Shown here: positions 3,317 through 19,154 of the stretch, piece by piece
How the letters are laid out: every line of letters begins with the position of its first letter
Numbering within the stretch: the first letter of the stretch is position 1
Virus genome (UHGV): UHGV-0116607
DNA length: 25,764 nucleotides
Strand: one strand, 5' to 3'
Source of the DNA: a virus
The notes under the pieces: model-generated
Database searches by the model: none
Told to the model about the DNA's origin: nothing
Seen by the model: the letters and a program-made list of their open reading frames with translations, nothing else
Made by a program: the position numbers and the translations under genes

Positions 3317-4648
3317 ATGGCCGACATTTACCTCCCGACGCTGCATGACGGGCAGTTAAAGGTCTGGTCAGATTCCTGGGAAGGTCAACTGCACGCGGTC
3401 CGGTGTGGTCGCCGCTGGGGTAAGACCTTCATGCTTTCCAGCGCTGCGGTGACCTACGCTACAGCGCCGTTTAAGCGTCCGGGCATGGACATTGAACTCG
3501 GTGGCCGTGTCGGTATCTTCACAGCTGAGTACCGCCAGTATCAGGAGATCTACGACAAGCTCGAAGAAATCCTGCTGCCGCTGAAAAAGAGCTTCAGCCG
3601 GCAGGAAAAGCGCCTGCTGCTGAAGAACGGCGGGAAGATTGACTTCTGGGTCACCAACGACAACAAACTGGCCGGTCGTGGTCGTGAGTACGAAATTATC
3701 CTGATCGATGAGGCGGCGTTTACCAAGTCGCCTGAAATGCTGAAGGAAATCTGGCCGAAGTCGATTAAGCCGACGCTACTGACGACAAAAGGTCGGGCCT
3801 ACGTATTCTCAACGCCTGACGGTGTGGACGAAGAAAACTTCTTCTATGCCATCTGCCATAACAAAGACCTCGGCTTCCATGAGCATCATGCTCCGACGTC
3901 ATCCAACCCCTTCGTTCCTCCTGAGGAACTGGAGAAGGAGAGGGCCAACAACGACCCGCGCGTGTTCCGCCAGGAGTTTCTGGCCGAGTTCGTCGACTGG
4001 TCTGCCGCTTCGCTGTTCGACGTCCGCAAATGGTTCGAGGGTGAAAATCAGGATCAGCCTGTCGATTACCCTGAAATGTGCCAGGCCGTCTTCGCTGTCA
4101 TGGATACCGCCGTCAAAGGTGGATCAGAACATGACGGTACGGCTGTGGTGTATTACGCCGTCGACACCCGGCCCGGCATTCAGCGCCTCACCATTCTCGA
4201 CTGGGATGTGGTGCAGATTGACGGCGCACTGCTGGAGACGTGGATGCCGTCGGTGTTCGACCGCCTCAATGAGCTTTCCGGCCAGTGCGTTGCCATCAAC
4301 GGCAGCCTTGGCGTGTTCATAGAAGACGCCAGCATGGGCAGCATCCTCCTGCAGAAAGGCGAAAGCCTTGGATGGCCGGTCAACAAAATTGAGTCCGCCC
4401 TGACCAGCAAAGGAAAGGACGAACGCGCCATTATGGCCTCCGGTTATCACTACCGCGGGCTGGCGAAAATTTCCCGACACGCCTACGAGAAGACAGCCGT
4501 CTTTAAGGGCGAGACAGCAAACCATCTGCACAAGCAGGTTTCCCGATTCCACCTTGCCGACAAGAAAGCGCATAAGCGCGCCGATGACCTTCTCGATGAT
4601 TACACCTACGGGCTGATCATCGCCTTCGGCAGCGGCGACGCAATCTGA
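3317..4648 (+). CDS. Terminase large subunit (ATPase/nuclease)
   Basis: 443 aa; Walker A-like CGRRWGKT near the N-terminus; Walker B-like YEIILIDEAAF; immediately follows terS. Confidence 0.8.
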   Translation: MADIYLPTLHDGQLKVWSDSWEGQLHAVRCGRRWGKTFMLSSAAVTYATAPFKRPGMDIELGGRVGIFTAEYRQYQEIYDKLEEILLPLKKSFSRQEKRLLLKNGGKIDFWVTNDNKLAGRGREYEIILIDEAAFTKSPEMLKEIWPKSIKPTLLTTKGRAYVFSTPDGVDEENFFYAICHNKDLGFHEHHAPTSSNPFVPPEELEKERANNDPRVFRQEFLAEFVDWSAASLFDVRKWFEGENQDQPVDYPEMCQAVFAVMDTAVKGGSEHDGTAVVYYAVDTRPGIQRLTILDWDVVQIDGALLETWMPSVFDRLNELSGQCVAINGSLGVFIEDASMGSILLQKGESLGWPVNKIESALTSKGKDERAIMASGYHYRGLAKISRHAYEKTAVFKGETANHLHKQVSRFHLADKKAHKRADDLLDDYTYGLIIAFGSGDAI

Positions 4649-11862: not shown

Positions 11863-12787
11863 ACTACAGCAGAATGCAAAAACAGAGCTTAACGCGGCTC
11901 TGACGCAGGGGCTTGACGACCTCAGTCGCTTTCAGGTGGTTACGTTTACGAAGTATATCCGTAAGGTTCTCCCGCTTGATGGCTTCGTGTTCTGGGTGAA
12001 AGCCTCCGTCCTGTCTGATAACCCGGGCAACGAACCCGACACGGTAAACGTCAAAGGCTACCTTCATCTGACGACAGAAACCATCCAGGACGATGAACAA
12101 CTCTACGACCGAAACGTCGTTACGTTTACTGCGCAGGCCGATATAGACCCATTCAACGATATTGGATCGGACGTCCTGTACATCGGCGAGTTTTTTGGCA
12201 TTCAGTTTTCTTTCTCCCGTCGAACCGGACTGAACGAACCGGCCAATCTTTATCACTACACAGGGGAGGCGATCTATCCGCATATGCGGTCGCAGATTAT
12301 CAACTCTGCGGATGATATCGACCTGAGTGACGTTGTGGTTTCCAGTTCGTTGCCTGTATGGCTTGGGCTTAGTCAGTTTATGCCAATGTTTCCGGCGATG
12401 CTTTCCACGCAGAACCTGTCGCCTCCCTTCGCGACAATACGGTGCAGCAATGTCTCTCCGATCGCCGGGGCGTTTTATATCGATGAACGCGACAACCAGT
12501 ACCAGCTGGTTTCCGAGGATGTGACGATTTCGATTACAGGCCTCAGGAATGCCGTGGTTGAGGACTTTCTGCGATACGTTCAGCAGTACACCCTGCGCGA
12601 TGATGCAGAAATGGGCGTAATGAACATCCCCGTTGTGCAGGATGAGCGCGTTACGCAGAACGAACTGAACGTTATCGCCATGCGCAAGACCATCAAATTC
12701 AAAGTCAATTATTACCAGCAGCGGATGCGCAACGTAGCCCGCGGGCTGATCCTGTCTGCAATTCCGTCCATTTATCCGGAGAAATAA
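11846..12787 (+). CDS. Structural protein of unknown function (neck / sheath-proximal)
   Basis: 313 aa; overlaps the upstream gene by 17 nt; immediately precedes the sheath gene. Confidence 0.35.
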   Translation: MPSLSELQQNAKTELNAALTQGLDDLSRFQVVTFTKYIRKVLPLDGFVFWVKASVLSDNPGNEPDTVNVKGYLHLTTETIQDDEQLYDRNVVTFTAQADIDPFNDIGSDVLYIGEFFGIQFSFSRRTGLNEPANLYHYTGEAIYPHMRSQIINSADDIDLSDVVVSSSLPVWLGLSQFMPMFPAMLSTQNLSPPFATIRCSNVSPIAGAFYIDERDNQYQLVSEDVTISITGLRNAVVEDFLRYVQQYTLRDDAEMGVMNIPVVQDERVTQNELNVIAMRKTIKFKVNYYQQRMRNVARGLILSAIPSIYPEK

Positions 12788-12791
12788 TTAA

Positions 12792-14186
12792 ATGGCAATT
12801 GTTAACATTAACGTATCGGTGACCAATCCGCCGAAGCCCTCGCAGCTGCTTAAATCCGGCGCGATGATCTCCATGGGCGGGACGACTCTGGCGGCAGGCG
12901 AATATCAGTTGCTTACGTCAAAAGACGATCTGAAAGCTATCACCGCCCCGGGGAAAACGATATCAACCATTGTCTGGGCGGCCAATCTGGTCACTGTTAC
13001 CCTCGCATCGCCTCATGGCTGGACGAATGGCAGCACCGTGCCTGTTGTGATTTCTGGCGTGGCACCTGCGGCATACAACCGCTCTGCTGAGGCGACGGTT
13101 ACCAGCGCGACGGAATTTACTTATTCGCTGAGCAGCGACCCGGGGACGGCAACCACCATGGGCGTTGTTAAGACGGTTGTTGCTGGTGAAATTATCCAGA
13201 TGAACACCACGTACTGGGCGCAGGGTGCAGCTCGCGCGGTCTATGTGCTGGAACTTGGTGACATCACCATCCCGGCAGCCGTGGCAGCTCTGAGTGATTT
13301 TATCGACAAGGATATTTCCCTCGGCAACACGTACCAGAAATTCTTTTCGTATCTGGTACCTCGTGAGTGGGATTCTGAAGCGACTTTCAAAACGCTCACG
13401 GGTCAGTACACATCCCCCGGATCGCTGGTTTATTTCTTTGTCACAAGCACGATTGCCACCTATCAGTCATGGGTGACAACAAAGAATAAAACCGTATTTG
13501 CAGGGGTCGAAGCTCCGAATATTCCAGCTACTGAATTTTCGATGGCGGCAGCGTTCCAGTCCTCGCTGTCAAATGACCCCGGTTCGTCGAACATGGTACC
13601 GCCGATGGCGTTCCGCTTCATGTATGGGGTGACTGAATACCCGGTTGAGAACAACGGTACGTTGCTGAAAACGCTCCAGGAAAACCACGTCAACTACATC
13701 GGGTCATCTGCAGAAGGCGGCCTGAGCAACAAGATGCTGGTAGCCGGCCACATGCTTGACGGTAATCCGTTTAACTACTGGTATGCAGTAGCATGGGCCG
13801 CTATTAACCTTGAACTGGACCTGGCTAACGAAGTGATCAACGGGTCTAACACCACAACCAACCCACTGTATTACGACCAGAACGGTATTGACCGCCTGCA
13901 AAACCGCGCACTGAAAACGCTGCGTAATGGAATTAGCTATGGGCTGATTCTGGGCCGCGTTATCGGTACAAAACTTATTCAGTCCGATTTCAACACCGAA
14001 TACGAGAAAGGTTCTTACGCGGGTAATGCTGTTATCAACGCAGTGCCTTTTGCTAACTATTCCAGCCTGAATCCTTCGGATTACAAGGAGGGTAAGTACA
14101 ACGGGCTAGGTGCTGTTATCACGCCGCGCCGTGGCTTCGAGTCCATCACGTTTAACCTGAACGTTACCAATTTTGTAGGGGCATAA
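12792..14186 (+). CDS. Tail sheath protein (putative) with N-terminal Ig-like insertion
   Basis: 464 aa; followed directly by a 145-aa tube-like gene, chaperone pair and tape measure (canonical contractile-tail order); carries the shared …ISGVAPAAYN…FTY… domain. Confidence 0.5.
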   Translation: MAIVNINVSVTNPPKPSQLLKSGAMISMGGTTLAAGEYQLLTSKDDLKAITAPGKTISTIVWAANLVTVTLASPHGWTNGSTVPVVISGVAPAAYNRSAEATVTSATEFTYSLSSDPGTATTMGVVKTVVAGEIIQMNTTYWAQGAARAVYVLELGDITIPAAVAALSDFIDKDISLGNTYQKFFSYLVPREWDSEATFKTLTGQYTSPGSLVYFFVTSTIATYQSWVTTKNKTVFAGVEAPNIPATEFSMAAAFQSSLSNDPGSSNMVPPMAFRFMYGVTEYPVENNGTLLKTLQENHVNYIGSSAEGGLSNKMLVAGHMLDGNPFNYWYAVAWAAINLELDLANEVINGSNTTTNPLYYDQNGIDRLQNRALKTLRNGISYGLILGRVIGTKLIQSDFNTEYEKGSYAGNAVINAVPFANYSSLNPSDYKEGKYNGLGAVITPRRGFESITFNLNVTNFVGA

Positions 14187-14187
14187 C

Positions 14188-14625
14188 ATGGCAAACCCAT
14201 TAGTACCACAAGGATTCCTCAACCGCGTCCGTGGCGCGGTTTCCATCACTGATGTTCCGGCTCTGAATGTTACTGCATCTTATCTTGGTAAAGACGGGAT
14301 CAGCATGCGTCCGGACGGTCCCGCCACGGACATTCTGCCGACCATGACCGGCACCGTTGGCAGTCAGGTACCGTATCAGCAGGTTACCTTAACCGTCCAC
14401 ATGCTGCGCACTCAGGGTCTTGCCGCAAGCTATCAACAGCGCTTTACGACGGACACAGCGCTTGGCGAGGTGGTTGTTACCCCGGACGCAACCACATTTG
14501 GCAACTTCACCCTGCTTAACTGCTACCTGGTCAACTTTAACGAGATGCCATTTAACGGTATGGATGCCGGGTACGTGGTAACCATCAGCGGCTACCTCAT
14601 CACTAACGACAACATGTGGATCTGA
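14188..14625 (+). CDS. Tail tube protein (putative)
   Basis: 145 aa; position immediately after the sheath gene; size typical of contractile-tail tube proteins. Confidence 0.5.
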   Translation: MANPLVPQGFLNRVRGAVSITDVPALNVTASYLGKDGISMRPDGPATDILPTMTGTVGSQVPYQQVTLTVHMLRTQGLAASYQQRFTTDTALGEVVVTPDATTFGNFTLLNCYLVNFNEMPFNGMDAGYVVTISGYLITNDNMWI

Positions 14626-15203
14626 CCGTGAAAATCGATAAAAAACTAAATCTGGTCTGTTCGATCAGCCGTGATGACGGTGCTCTCATTTATGTTCACA
14701 CCTCACCTTTTCCCTATGAGGTGGTGGAAGAGCATTGCCTGATGCTCGGTAGCCTGTTTACCAGTTTCATTGCTCAGGTTGGTGGTCTTGGCGCGGCCCG
14801 GGTAGCGGCAATGATGCTTCGGAAGAAAATTAAAAAGGAACAGGAGGTAACCGGGCAGGATGGCCCAAACATTGTTGATGAAATCCAGCGCCAGACAACA
14901 GTCATTTTTAATGACAACGGTCAGTGGAAATCTGTGCCGTTAGATTCTGCGATGAAACAGGGCATTATTTCCGCTGACGAGTTTCGTGAGGTGGAAGGTG
15001 AAATCGTTTTTTTTATGGTTTCCTCTGCCATTCAGAAACCGGAACTCATCAAGCCAACGGTGGGGAGCGTGCTCGGTATGTTCGGTGGTCAGTTAACGTT
15101 ATCGACCGCTACGGAGTGGCGAGGTTCTTTACTGACGTCGAAAACGGATACCGATACCCCGAACCAGACTGCCCCGCAGGAAACGTCGTTTATACCCTCC
15201 TAG
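14616..15203 (+). CDS. Tail assembly chaperone (putative, G-like)
   Basis: 195 aa; located between the tube and tape measure genes; overlapped at its 3' end by a -1 frame ORF. Confidence 0.4.
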   Translation: MDLTVKIDKKLNLVCSISRDDGALIYVHTSPFPYEVVEEHCLMLGSLFTSFIAQVGGLGAARVAAMMLRKKIKKEQEVTGQDGPNIVDEIQRQTTVIFNDNGQWKSVPLDSAMKQGIISADEFREVEGEIVFFMVSSAIQKPELIKPTVGSVLGMFGGQLTLSTATEWRGSLLTSKTDTDTPNQTAPQETSFIPS

Positions 15204-15337
15204 ACTGGGCCTCTAACGAGGGGTTCAGGGACGTTGTAAGGGAAATAGCTGGCGAGGAATACGCCAGCCCATCCCAGTTCAGGCAGCGCTTTATCCTCTC
15301 CGCCTTAAAAGAAAGGGGTCATTTCAATGGCAGCTAA
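15116..15337 (+). CDS. -1 frame ORF overlapping the chaperone 3' end (possible frameshift extension, G-T-like)
   Basis: 73-aa ORF in the -1 frame relative to 14616-15203, ending at the tape measure start; arrangement matches the conserved chaperone frameshift locus, but no canonical X XXY YYZ slippery heptamer was found in the overlap. Confidence 0.3.
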   Translation: MARFFTDVENGYRYPEPDCPAGNVVYTLLDWASNEGFRDVVREIAGEEYASPSQFRQRFILSALKERGHFNGS

Positions 15338-17153
15338 ATCCATTATTGAAGTTGATGTAAATGACGAAAAGTTCTTGTCATTTATGGAAAAATTCAACGA
15401 ATACCAGGCTGCTCTTGAAGATCTTCCCGAAGCATGGCGGGCATCTGCGCAGGGTATTGGCGACACCGCCCGCGAAACGTCAAAAGCATCCTCAGAAGCT
15501 GAGGGGGTGACAAAGGCTTTTTTGGATGGCGTTGATGCTTTGAATATGATGGTGAATAACCTCGATCGCATCAACACCAGCCTTGACGATGCCAATAAGC
15601 GTCAGAGTGACCTGAATAAGAAAACTGCTGGCTCTTCCAGCATATTTGGCAAACTTAAAAAGGACTCAAAAGAGTTCGCCGGCCATATCAAAGACGCCAC
15701 AGTCAGCCTGCTGTCATGGGGCGGTATTGTAGGGTTGTTTACTGGTGTTCTCGGCGCTGGTGGGTTGTTCGGACTGAACCGCCTAGCATCCACCGCGAGC
15801 GCCCAGCGATTCACCTCTATGGGGTTGAATACCTCGATTGGTGCCCTGGATTCAACGGCCATTAACTACCAGCGTGCAGTGTCCAACCCAACCGCGACAC
15901 TGGGTGCCATTCGTGACACTCAGGCCGATTTATCCCAGCGCTGGAAATTCCAGGCTATGGGCATCAATAACCCTGACCGCTCCCCGGACCAGTTGCTGCC
16001 GGAGATGATTCGTGCCGCCAGGAGTATTTTCACGCAAACCGGCGGCACGTTGCAGGGGGCTAACGCCTACGGGTTGACCAGCTTCTTCAGTATTGATGAC
16101 CTCAATCGCTTTAAAAATATGAGCGATGCCGAGATCGACGCTATGGAGAAACGTGCGAAGCGTGACGCTCAGTTGCTGCAGATCACTGATGAGCAGGCCC
16201 GGCAATGGCAGGATTTCAATATTCAACTCGACTACAGCAGTCAGAGCATCAAAAACACGTTCATCCGTGGACTTGGCCCGCTTACCCCTGGACTGACAAA
16301 ACTCTCTGATGCGTTGTCTGGTGCTATCGATACCGTTATTCAATCTCCAGAACTTGGAAAATGGATCGACGGGCTCGCTGGTGGTATTCAGCGATTTGGT
16401 GATTACCTGGCCTCTCCCGACTTTAAAAATGATGTCGAAAACTTCATGGTAAAAGTCGAGAAGCTTGGAAAAGTAATTGGGAAGGTTGTCGACTGGATTA
16501 TTGGTAAAACAGACACCACAGGAATTATTGATGGTGTTAAATCAGAATCGACAATTCTTAATGCAAATCCAGTGACAGACCCTAAGACAGGAAAAACGTA
16601 TACACCTGGTAGCGAGGATGACCCGCATGTTTGGGGGTGGCTAAAAGGGGTAAAGCGATTCTTTTCTGGCGGAGACATTGCTCCTGTTGATCCTCTGCCA
16701 GCTAATGTCAACGCTAAAGGTCGCACGATTGCCGATCGGTTCAACAACCCCGGAAATCTGAGGTGGGCGGAAGGCTACGAGACTAGCAACACCAAAAGTG
16801 GGAAGTTCGCCGTATTTCCAACACTTGATGAAGGCGTTCTGGCGGCAACAAAGCAACTCCAGATATACGGCCAGCGCGGGACAAACACTGTAAGGGACAT
16901 CGTCAGTAAATGGGCTCCATCAAATGAAAACAACACGGAGGAGTATATCCGGCACGTTGTTCGCTCGACCAAATTTAATGAGAACGAAAAACTCAATCTG
17001 AACGATCCCTATGTGCTGGCGAAGTTAATTTCTGCAATAGCCTCAAAAGAAGGGGCAGGAAGCCGAGTTACAGAGGACCGGGTTATTCAGATTTACAACA
17101 ACACGGGGGGTAACGCGATTGTTACCGGATCACAGTTGGGGGCTATGGGATAA
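15327..17153 (+). CDS. Tail tape measure protein with C-terminal globular domain
   Basis: 608 aa; helical, Ala/Leu-rich N-terminal half; Gly-rich hydrophobic segment LSWGGIVGLFTGVLGAGGLFGLN; position after the chaperone pair; C-terminal about 170 aa (…FNNPGNLRWAEGYETSNTKSGKFAVFP…) looks like a separate folded domain. Confidence 0.6.
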   Translation: MAAKSIIEVDVNDEKFLSFMEKFNEYQAALEDLPEAWRASAQGIGDTARETSKASSEAEGVTKAFLDGVDALNMMVNNLDRINTSLDDANKRQSDLNKKTAGSSSIFGKLKKDSKEFAGHIKDATVSLLSWGGIVGLFTGVLGAGGLFGLNRLASTASAQRFTSMGLNTSIGALDSTAINYQRAVSNPTATLGAIRDTQADLSQRWKFQAMGINNPDRSPDQLLPEMIRAARSIFTQTGGTLQGANAYGLTSFFSIDDLNRFKNMSDAEIDAMEKRAKRDAQLLQITDEQARQWQDFNIQLDYSSQSIKNTFIRGLGPLTPGLTKLSDALSGAIDTVIQSPELGKWIDGLAGGIQRFGDYLASPDFKNDVENFMVKVEKLGKVIGKVVDWIIGKTDTTGIIDGVKSESTILNANPVTDPKTGKTYTPGSEDDPHVWGWLKGVKRFFSGGDIAPVDPLPANVNAKGRTIADRFNNPGNLRWAEGYETSNTKSGKFAVFPTLDEGVLAATKQLQIYGQRGTNTVRDIVSKWAPSNENNTEEYIRHVVRSTKFNENEKLNLNDPYVLAKLISAIASKEGAGSRVTEDRVIQIYNNTGGNAIVTGSQLGAMG

Positions 17154-17863
17154 TGGGGTTCACTCGTGAGATGTACAAGCTGGGGTTTGAAATATCCCCG
17201 GTTATCCTTTGTGACGGCATTGCCCAGGCAATACCAGGTGGCATGCTTCCGATCGTTGCCCTGACCCAAAGCGCCAGTTTTGTAACTGGTCTTTTGGGTG
17301 GCGCAATTAACCTCACCGATCTGGATAAATATTTTTGCCACTGGAAACCAGTTCAGGGCTCAACGCTTATTGATTACGACATTGCCCGCTACCCTTTTGC
17401 TAACCAGGTCGTGGCCGCCAATGCGTTACTGGCTCAACCTTTGCGCGTATCCCTGATTATGGAAGCGCCGGTGAATGAGAATACCGGAGCAATGACTAAG
17501 TTAGTAACGATCAGCGCACTACAGTCAGTTCTCCAGGCCCATGCCAGTCTCGGTGGAACATTCATCGTTGCCACACCGTCAGTTATCTATAACCGATGCA
17601 TATTGCGCACCGTGAAGGACATCACAGGCGGCAACGATGCGTTACCGCAACGGACGTGGATGTGGGACTTCGAACAGCCGCTGATTACCTTAACTGGTGC
17701 GGAGAAGGCAGTTAATAACTTCCTGAATAAGATTGGCGCTGGAGACGTGGTAACCGAGCCAGCATGGACAAACACGGTCAATGCTCTGGGCAACACCTCT
17801 CTTGGTGGTTCTGTTTCAGAGGCTATAACGGGCCTTCTTGGCAAACTTGGAATAGGCGCATGA
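17153..17863 (+). CDS. Baseplate/tail protein of unknown function
   Basis: 236 aa; start overlaps the tape measure stop (TAATG); position. Confidence 0.4.
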   Translation: MGFTREMYKLGFEISPVILCDGIAQAIPGGMLPIVALTQSASFVTGLLGGAINLTDLDKYFCHWKPVQGSTLIDYDIARYPFANQVVAANALLAQPLRVSLIMEAPVNENTGAMTKLVTISALQSVLQAHASLGGTFIVATPSVIYNRCILRTVKDITGGNDALPQRTWMWDFEQPLITLTGAEKAVNNFLNKIGAGDVVTEPAWTNTVNALGNTSLGGSVSEAITGLLGKLGIGA

Positions 17864-18135
17864 CAACTCAATATTTCCCATTCTCAGGTAATGAGCGTCA
17901 AAGCATAGCTTTTACGCCTGTTCTTGATGGTGCAGTTTATAACTGCCAGATTAAATGGAATATTGCCGCTCAGCGCTGGTATTTGTTTATTACTGATAAT
18001 TCAGAAAATGCAATTATTAACACAGCCTTGGTCGGATCGCCTGCCGCTGGTGGTATTAATCTCATCTCTGGTGTATTCAGATTCACAACTATGTACTGGC
18101 GGGAAAAGAACGGGCAAATTGAGGTAATAAGTTAA
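17860..18135 (+). CDS. Small baseplate-associated protein (hypothetical)
   Basis: 91 aa from ATG 17860 (ATGA overlap); AT-rich; the ORF track's 17764 start would overlap the upstream gene. Confidence 0.35.
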   Translation: MTTQYFPFSGNERQSIAFTPVLDGAVYNCQIKWNIAAQRWYLFITDNSENAIINTALVGSPAAGGINLISGVFRFTTMYWREKNGQIEVIS

Positions 18136-19154
18136 TGCGTTATTACGATATACAGATTTTCGATCCGTCAAAAGACGGAAAATCTGATGTGTTATTGAAG
18201 CAATATAGCAGCCACAAAAATGGAGCTTATAATCCCGGCGCATTAATGATTGAGTTTGACATTCTCAGGTTTGGTGAATCAACCCCACAGGGTGAAACGC
18301 ACCTGACTATATGGGGTATTGGACCGAAAGAAATGCAGCAGGCCAGACAGGACCTTTTCGGTAAAAGAATAAAAATCTTTCTCGGTATGAAGCAAGGTCT
18401 ACCACTAGCTGGGAACTTCAAAGCGCCAGGACTGGTGCTTGATGGTACGATTAATCAGGTTTTTGGTAACTGGCAGGGTACGGATTTAAGGCTGGATTTT
18501 GTGATTGTAACTGGTCCAGTAACGTTAAACCCTGATGAGAAACCAGCACCACTGCCGTTAACGTTTGACTGGAAAGTTGGGCAAAAATTATCTGTCGCCT
18601 TAACTAACTGCTTCCAGTTGATAGGCGGTTATACATTTAATATTAATATTAGTGATCGGCTGGTTCTTAATCATTACAGAGGGCTGTTTTGTCGCGATAT
18701 AGTTTCTCTGGCAAAGGACCTTAATGCCTTTTCTCGCTCATGGATTAAGGACTCAGGTTACACTGGTGTTGAAATGGCCATAGTTAACGGCAATCAAATT
18801 CGAGTCTGGGATAATGATGTCAATTACCATCCTGAAGGTTCAGAAGTTACAAGTATAACCGAGTTGAATTTTACTGATTTAATCGGTCAGCCGACATGGG
18901 TAGCCTTTAAAACCATTAGCCTGATGTGTGTTATGCGCAGTGATATTCAGGTTGGTGACCATATAAGCATGCCTAAAAAAACCGCCCCAGTAATAAGAGC
19001 CTCTTCATATTCTCAGTATCGGGATGATTCCGCTTTTACAGGTGAGTTTGTTGTTAGTTCAGTGCGTCTTATTGGTAATAGTCGGCAGCCAACTGCCGAT
19101 GCATGGGTAACAATTATTGAGGCATATCCATTTGTTAAGGCTGGTGGTAAATGA
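18135..19154 (+). CDS. Baseplate hub-like protein (hypothetical)
   Basis: 339 aa; TAATG overlap with the upstream gene; AT-rich relative to neighbours; located just upstream of the spike gene. Confidence 0.35.
   Translation: MRYYDIQIFDPSKDGKSDVLLKQYSSHKNGAYNPGALMIEFDILRFGESTPQGETHLTIWGIGPKEMQQARQDLFGKRIKIFLGMKQGLPLAGNFKAPGLVLDGTINQVFGNWQGTDLRLDFVIVTGPVTLNPDEKPAPLPLTFDWKVGQKLSVALTNCFQLIGGYTFNINISDRLVLNHYRGLFCRDIVSLAKDLNAFSRSWIKDSGYTGVEMAIVNGNQIRVWDNDVNYHPEGSEVTSITELNFTDLIGQPTWVAFKTISLMCVMRSDIQVGDHISMPKKTAPVIRASSYSQYRDDSAFTGEFVVSSVRLIGNSRQPTADAWVTIIEAYPFVKAGGK

Follow-up and report, generated by a model that had tools for sequence, protein, structure and literature searches.

What lies at the C-terminal end of the tape measure protein encoded by the UHGV virus genome UHGV-0116607, and what might it do when the phage infects a cell? 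We addressed this question in a stretch of 25,764 nt, which was analyzed in its whole length (here called the window; all positions are given on it). For the tape measure gene of the window the original prediction, made from the DNA letters, had placed a separate globular domain of about 170 residues and of unknown function at 16630-17153, and had named cell-wall hydrolases as a frequent type of such add-on. We found that the C-terminus is a compact domain of its own which, as judged by sequence homology and predicted fold, belongs to the Enc34/PHA02564 muralytic family (PHA02564 in the NCBI CDD). The fold of this family is all-helical and is a circularly permuted form related to the lysozyme alpha-lobe. 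As to its function, we infer activity, cleaved bond, virion location and entry role alike: the domain is very probably a virion-associated peptidoglycan glycosidase of the Enc34/PHA02564 type that would cut the wall locally at DNA injection. The parts of the gene on which the argument turns are the following:

15327..17153, + strand: tail tape measure protein gene, 608 aa, with a C-terminal lysin domain (open reading frame (ORF) call, gene order, PHROG matches)
16467..16706, + strand: variable linker, residues 381-460, joining the tape-measure body to the lysin domain; it holds the mosaic junction at ~16632 (alignment, predicted local distance difference test (pLDDT))
16722..17108, + strand: Enc34/PHA02564-type muralytic domain, residues ~466-594 (homology, predicted fold)
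17091..17144, + strand: conserved extreme C-terminal tail IYNNTGGNAIVTGSQLGA, residues 589-606 (alignments)

The interval 16630-17153 corresponds to residues 435-608, with the in-frame start at 16629, and the peptide quoted in the original prediction comprises residues D455-G518. We modeled residues 435-608 with AlphaFold2 on an alignment of 32 sequences and obtained a mean pLDDT of 83.7 and a predicted template modelling score (pTM) of 0.75. The confident core of this model extends from about residue 460 to 594 and consists of five helices and a beta-hairpin. A model of the full-length protein also folds residues ~470-592 confidently (pLDDT 81-96), preceded by a low-confidence stretch, with a pLDDT below 50 across most of the linker. 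The same boundary is seen in an alignment of 39 distant full-length homologues, where the identity to the query falls to 5-17% and the occupancy to 33-86% in residues 381-460, while past the linker the identity is back up to 24-57% over residues 461-600. Together with a mosaic junction in the DNA, described below, these data confirm that the C-terminus is a compact separate domain and no continuation of the helical ruler, so that the predicted division of the protein is borne out. Its predicted length was slightly generous, as the folded core comprises ~125-130 aa, to which ~30 aa of linker before it and a conserved tail of ~15 aa after it have to be added.

The identity of the domain was established by sequence and by fold. 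In a phmmer (HMMER) search against the PDB sequences the best-scoring sequence of a solved structure was Gp29 (PDB 9vvp chain L), which matched with residues 6-117 of 1295 at an E-value of 4.2e-15, and the Enc34 endolysin's catalytic domain (7q47_A) matched at 7.4e-7. The latter entry, 7Q47, is the endolysin catalytic domain of Hafnia phage Enc34 (Cernooka et al. 2022, PMC8943055). The literature search for PDB 9VVP yielded no paper on the entry and Gp29 was identified by its sequence instead, which shares 99% identity with the internal virion/ejectosome protein (gp16 type) of E. coli Kayfunavirus phages (T7 relatives such as LS2 and Mt1B1_P3). Among the PHROG families, the domain matched phrog_873 (endolysin, E 4e-36), phrog_2276 (tape measure), phrog_7182 (tail injection transglycosylase) and phrog_992 (head protein), and tblastn with the domain reached Hafnia phage Enc34 ORF39 and the Chi-like endolysins. 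The predicted fold is mostly helical and matches the type of the 7Q47 crystal structure, a permuted lysozyme alpha-lobe. When the whole protein and the domain were scanned against Pfam and NCBIfam, only sub-threshold coiled-coil or chance matches came up and no model for the domain. Its function can thus not be called unknown, since the family was characterized biochemically in 2020 and structurally in 2022 and is simply missing from Pfam and NCBIfam. The suspected relation to cell-wall hydrolases holds: homology in sequence and predicted fold leads to the muralytic Enc34 domain, with conserved active-site residues (PMC8943055), and is detectable also to the gp16-type ejection proteins of T7-like phages. 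In the literature on PHA02564 or Enc34 we found no paper that describes the domain in a tape measure protein.

For the active site we transferred the residues described for Enc34, where Glu131 is the catalytic glutamate and Trp79 and Tyr95 are conserved and catalytically important (PMC8943055); in that paper each of the three numbers is one lower than in a count that starts at the initiator Met. Equivalent positions were taken from a HMMER alignment and from a MAFFT alignment of the window domain, Enc34 ORF39, Citrobacter phage CR8 gp16 and a Yersinia phage protein, and conservation was counted in the columns of 160 homologous domain sequences. The positions are:

16743..16757, + strand: NNPGN motif, residues 473-477, the N-terminal signature of the family (conservation)
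16911..16913, + strand: W529, equivalent of Enc34 Trp79, active-site aromatic (alignments; codon read)
16944..16946, + strand: Y540, equivalent of Enc34 Tyr95 (alignments; codon read)
17049..17051, + strand: E575, equivalent of Enc34 Glu131 (GAA codon read from the sequence; alignments)

Glutamate occupies the E575 column in 154 of 155 non-gap homologues and is invariant in the alignments A1 and A2, the latter of 44 full-length homologues. Tyrosine is found at the Y540 position in 151/156 non-gap homologues, and the W529 column is always aromatic (W80/Y70/F7). N474, P475 and N477 of the NNPGN motif are each conserved in at least 90% of the 160 homologues; in alignment A1, N474 and P475 are invariant and N477 is nearly so. 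From these equivalences we propose that E575 acts as general acid and that Y540 and W529 line the substrate groove.

A further view of the domain came from a comparison with E. coli prophages. When 5426 complete E. coli genomes were searched for near-identical DNA, only two assemblies gave coordinate-identical matches, which ended at query base 1184, and this end of the match led us to the observation of a cassette swap. Over 12327-16632, that is over the sheath, tube, chaperone and tape-measure body, the window shares 96% identity with a prophage locus of E. coli (L002, NZ_CM174221), whereas window 16633-17149 has no alignable DNA similarity to this locus, and from 17150 onward, in the downstream baseplate genes, the identity is 75%. 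The junction points, window 16632/16633 and 17150, correspond to positions 4300 and 4884 of the E. coli locus. As the 96% identity ends at 16632, a natural mosaic junction lies within a few bases of the predicted start of the domain at 16630. The exchange was not a clean swap of the lysin cassette alone, since the identity is only 75% past 17150. The sister protein of the E. coli prophage (WP_000729221.1, NZ_CM174221) lies in the same gene neighbourhood and is 93% identical over residues 1-444, and carries at residues 454-548 a canonical SLT domain (PF01464, E 3.5e-21) that is unrelated in sequence to the window domain. It then ends in the same tail motif, YNNTGGNA(I/V)VT..QLGA. The tail IYNNTGGNAIVTGSQLGA is 78% identical in the SLT-carrying sister protein and is kept whichever lysin cassette precedes it. 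Within the tail, alignment A2 shows G594 as invariant and T593 and G595 as nearly so, and ~45% of the 160 aligned homologues possess the tail; it is probably the part by which the tape measure protein docks in the hub or plug of the baseplate. Compared with a related tape measure protein, the domain thus proves to be modular, with SLT in place of the Enc34-type domain. The two modules, unrelated in sequence, are thus interchangeable cassettes at one site of one scaffold, and from this comparison the swap with SLT speaks strongly for wall cleavage as the function under selection.

This exchange also bears on the question of which chemistry the domain would use. Homologues are named ‘lytic transglycosylase domain-containing protein’ or ‘peptidoglycan lytic exotransglycosylase’ in GenBank, RefSeq and UniRef, and following these names the domain would be a lytic transglycosylase with SLT/GH23 chemistry that leaves 1,6-anhydro-N-acetylmuramic acid (MurNAc) ends. 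In agreement with this, the domain holds the place of a true SLT domain in the sister E. coli tape measure protein, and T7 gp16 carries an SLT motif at the corresponding place. The Enc34 authors see a remote kinship with GH73 and GH23, including a remote common ancestry with GH23; the order of the core helices is permuted relative to GH23 (PMC8943055). The closest remote structural neighbours of the window domain seem to be GH73 glucosaminidases and not GH23 enzymes. PF01464 had no match at E<=1 in the whole protein or in the domain, while the sister protein scores 3.5e-21, and because of this difference the label ‘lytic transglycosylase’ is no family assignment for the window protein; the names rather seem to have been transferred by position or analogy. 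The products of M4Lys, an endolysin of the same family, also point to a hydrolytic glycosidase (PMC7143992), and we regard transglycosylase chemistry as improbable.

For the Enc34-type domain, activity is documented on isolated proteins. Cells of E. coli, P. aeruginosa and H. alvei with a permeabilised outer membrane are lysed by the isolated Enc34 catalytic domain (ORF39deltaC), whose activity on P. aeruginosa is comparable to that of hen lysozyme (PMC8943055). The muropeptides released by M4Lys (M4LysdeltaTMD), analyzed by high-performance liquid chromatography–mass spectrometry, were read as the products of an N-acetylglucosaminidase and an inferred endopeptidase (PMC7143992), and the Enc34 authors favour a GH73-like beta-N-acetylglucosaminidase (PMC8943055). 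By homology, the window domain would most likely cleave the GlcNAc-MurNAc bond as an N-acetylglucosaminidase (GlcNAc, N-acetylglucosamine). A further idea, which we consider rather unlikely, is that the two cassettes are not equivalent, the Enc34-type enzyme cutting a different bond (as glucosaminidase, possibly also as endopeptidase as claimed for M4Lys) and passing transglycosylase-resistant peptidoglycan, so that the cassette would set which hosts or cell states are infected. If this were true, it would concern resistant walls, e.g. heavily cross-linked or modified ones, and stationary-phase or cold-grown cells, and the range could be changed by recombination near 16632.

At which stage of the infection cycle the glycosidase would act is indicated by the lysis genes at the start of the window:

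56-373, + strand: LydA-type holin (PF16083, E 2e-21)
360-800, + strand: GH24 endolysin, a phage lysozyme (PF00959 Phage_lysozyme, E 1.4e-50)

Since the phage has its own holin and GH24 endolysin, the domain in the tape measure protein represents a second lysin and not the exit lysin. The GH24 gene is followed by an ORF without family match (797-1183), which may encode a spanin, and then by the small and large terminase and portal genes. The C-terminus of a tape measure protein lies at the tail tip, as is known from tail structures. The domain would thus sit at the tail-tip end, tethered by the variable linker and probably anchored in the baseplate hub by the short conserved tail. On sheath contraction the tube would be pushed through the outer membrane and the tape measure protein expelled tip-first into the periplasm, where the domain would cut glycan strands locally. 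The tube, or a conduit formed by the tape measure protein, would thereby reach the inner membrane, into which the Gly-rich segment at residues ~125-152 may insert.

Several points weigh against the assignment as an entry glycosidase. The bond specificity within the family has been read in more than one way, as the M4Lys data were taken for glucosaminidase plus endopeptidase and one figure legend on M4Lys says muramidase (PMC7143992). In the literature searched there was no experiment on the window protein, nor on the domain as part of any tape measure protein. At two positions the window domain departs from its homologues: K549 stands against Gly in 149/158 homologues, and F472 against a predominant Asn. 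No catalytic role has been proposed for either residue, but they may affect the activity of the domain. Finally, three copies of a folded domain of ~14 kDa would have to fit in or below the tube lumen.

The replacement of a nearly invariant Gly by K549 would also be in line with a domain that is mainly structural, i.e. a tail-tip plug or a hub-binding module with a lysozyme-like fold and no need for catalysis. The domain adjoins a conserved tail that probably docks in the hub, and some virion lysins have structural roles too (cited in PMC6116005). We nevertheless judge a purely structural role very unlikely, since the Glu, the Tyr and the aromatic residue are kept here and nearly universally in tape-measure-type homologues, and since the module is replaceable by a sequence-unrelated SLT enzyme with the tail motif kept, which argues for selection for wall cleavage and not for shape.

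That the domain is part of a tail tape measure protein follows from its genomic context in the tail module:

12792..14186, + strand: tail sheath gene (phrog_205 tail sheath, E 9e-47)
14188..14625, + strand: probable tail tube gene, 145 aa (directly 3' of the sheath gene, and size; assigned by gene order)
14616-15203, + strand: tail assembly chaperone ORF (phrog_11810 match)
15116-15337, + strand: -1-frame ORF that overlaps the chaperone ORF and ends 11 nt inside the tape measure gene
18135..19154, + strand: baseplate hub gene (phrog_196 baseplate hub, E 4e-35)

ORF 15327-17153 occupies the canonical tape-measure slot, following sheath, tube and chaperone pair and preceding baseplate plug and hub, and no other ORF of the tail module could serve as tape measure. 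The whole protein matched phrog_7694, a family with no assigned function, at E 3e-200, and partial matches were obtained to the tape-measure families phrog_2276 (residues 294-586, E 3e-26; partly due to the lysin domain itself) and phrog_1068 (residues 41-123, E 1e-4). In RefSeq, the homologue of Pantoea phage PdC23 bears the name tail length tape measure protein. On the basis of gene order, PHROG matches and this homologue we accept the ORF as the tail tape measure protein. The proposal that it encodes instead some other virion protein, ejected or internal, or else a reserve endolysin used at lysis, could appeal to a best whole-protein family without function, to the name ‘hypothetical’ given by NCBI to the identical protein, to a compact helical region at residues 150-310 of the AlphaFold2 model instead of one long helix and to the use of the same domain as endolysin in Chi-like phages, but is hardly plausible in view of the canonical gene order, the tape-measure matches, the RefSeq name, the dedicated cassette of holin, GH24 endolysin and putative spanin at 56-1183 and the absence of an alternative tape measure ORF from the tail module.

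The neighbouring genes fit the same module. The 145-aa probable tube protein matches phrog_6566, a family without assigned function. The chaperone ORF and the overlapping -1-frame ORF have the layout expected of a G/GT-type chaperone pair with programmed frameshift, and from this arrangement a frameshift would be expected; reading the sequence of the overlap, we did not identify a canonical slippery heptamer. Between the tape measure gene and the hub gene lie a 236-aa protein (phrog_7750, no assigned function) and a small protein, which PGAP assigns to the ‘baseplate plug family’ in a sister prophage. The stop codon of the tape measure gene overlaps the start codon of the next gene (TAATG, window 17151-17155), which suggests translational coupling with the 236-aa protein. 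Antisense ORFs (16403-16747, 16641-16856 and 16775-16996, minus strand) were not taken as genes; the plus-strand frame is strongly conserved at the protein level. A protein identical to the window protein is present in E. coli and Citrobacter genomes, labelled ‘hypothetical protein’. Among isolated phages, the closest are temperate myoviruses of Yersinia enterocolitica belonging to the vB_YenM_06.16-1 group, with 64% identity over the full length, and phages of this group are contractile-tailed by electron microscopy (PMC9224151).

The tape-measure body in front of the linker is predicted to be helical in the full-length AlphaFold model. Over residues 121-380, the 39 distant full-length homologues in the alignment share 25-48% identity with the query. 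One hydrophobic segment stands out:

15699..15782, + strand: Gly-rich hydrophobic segment TVSLLSWGGIVGLFTGVLGAGGLFGL, residues ~125-152 (Kyte-Doolittle peak)

This is the sole Kyte-Doolittle peak of the protein (1.67 in a 19-residue window), and W131, G143 and G149 within it are nearly invariant among homologues; the segment may have a role in membrane insertion. Residues ~150-310 (window 15774-16256) form a second compact helical region in the full-length AlphaFold model, with a pLDDT of 82-97, between helices of low confidence at residues 1-146 and 321-412. This region is the best-conserved stretch of the tape-measure body. A Foldseek search with the full-length model returned no PDB match for residues 150-310 and no Pfam family covers them, and a search of residues 1-434 against the PDB sequences found nothing.

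We then asked how widely the domain is distributed. With the domain alone as query, a word-indexed search for homologues yielded no more than 15 proteins, most of them fragments, and an exhaustive HMMER search gave 7181 cluster representatives at E<=1e-3. Within the best 153 of the 7181 representatives the domain takes the following places:

92 of 153: at the extreme C-terminus of a protein >300 aa
33 of 153: internal
11 of 153: near the N-terminus
17 of 153: in short proteins

About 45 of these best 153 share the tape-measure body of the window protein, with homology ending near residue 395 of the body, and the rest have unrelated bodies. In a survey of sequenced phages, comprising 701 records, the domain was found in myovirus tape measure proteins of Yersinia, Aeromonas, Serratia, Pantoea and Klebsiella phages, as the N-terminus of gp16-type ejectosome proteins of the T7-like Kayfunavirus and Caroctavirus phages, in the ‘tail injection transglycosylase’ of the P1-like phage D6 and in endolysins of Chi-like siphoviruses. 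For CR8 gp16 the GenBank annotation records detection by mass spectrometry. Mu-like Pseudomonas phages (D3112, JBD69, MP48 and H70) and phiV10 also have genes with the domain, at ~11 kb of the record and, in the Mu-like phages, among the early structural genes. Their annotations conflict, reading ‘endolysin’, ‘structural protein’, ‘capsid and scaffold’ or ‘head protein’, the last being also the name of phrog_992, and the protein may be a head-packaged ejection protein. The domain further occurs in very small Vibrio cyclitrophicus phage records (10N.*, ~14 kb, range 13-15 kb), labelled only as hypothetical protein, and may thus be used outside the tailed-phage architectures examined.

The value of these results is mainly one of annotation, as a domain with more than 7000 cluster representatives is without a Pfam or NCBIfam model. 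In prophages of Citrobacter, E. coli, Salmonella and Enterobacter, hundreds of close relatives bear the label ‘hypothetical’ or the loose one ‘lytic transglycosylase domain-containing’, and the Enc34-type assignment gives these tape measure proteins a testable enzymatic function. The natural SLT/Enc34-type swap allows a comparison of two chemistries in a near-identical scaffold, and the distribution points to a pool of virion-derived lysin domains that would be active on Gram-negative peptidoglycan. The family has been characterized before, proteins of this architecture are frequent in databases and lysin-type names, though imprecise ones, are already attached to close homologues; this is ordinary phage biology. 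The useful output is a corrected annotation and a natural cassette swap and no new kind of system, which will not surprise a phage specialist.

Compared with the known members of the family, the window protein differs in architecture and presumably in the side from which it acts. The Enc34 endolysin ORF39 and M4Lys of Salmonella phage BSPM4 are exit lysins of ~240 aa in which the domain is N-terminal and is followed by a two-helix transmembrane domain. In the window protein, by contrast, it stands at the C-terminus of a 608-aa tape measure protein, has a hub-type tail behind it and presumably acts from outside during entry. A large loop described in the Enc34 paper corresponds in the window model to a beta-hairpin (residues 485-496). 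Gp29 (9vvp chain L) and CR8 gp16 are closer in use, being, as is presumed for the window domain, virion-borne and ejected at infection, with Glu, Tyr and Trp conserved. Unlike the window protein, Gp29 belongs to a podovirus, carries the domain N-terminally (residues 6-117) in a protein of ~1300 aa and is stored in the capsid core and not in the tail tube. Lysin-bearing tape measure proteins (T5 Pb2 and those of mycobacteriophage TM4 and S. aureus phage phiIPLA35) as well as T7 gp16 are thought to digest peptidoglycan locally for the passage of the tube or its extension (reviewed in PMC6116005). All of these follow the same logic as the proposed entry glycosidase, with a wall-cutting module within a protein that is expelled through the tail at infection. 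The enzyme families are other ones: T5 has a peptidase type, TM4 has Rpf-like and peptidase motifs, phiIPLA35 has a muramidase and T7 has SLT/GH23. T7 is a podovirus and the precedents among tape measure proteins come from siphoviruses, whereas the window phage, a temperate enterobacterial myovirus, is contractile-tailed and adds a Gram-negative, contractile-tail case to the short list of lysin-bearing tape measure proteins.

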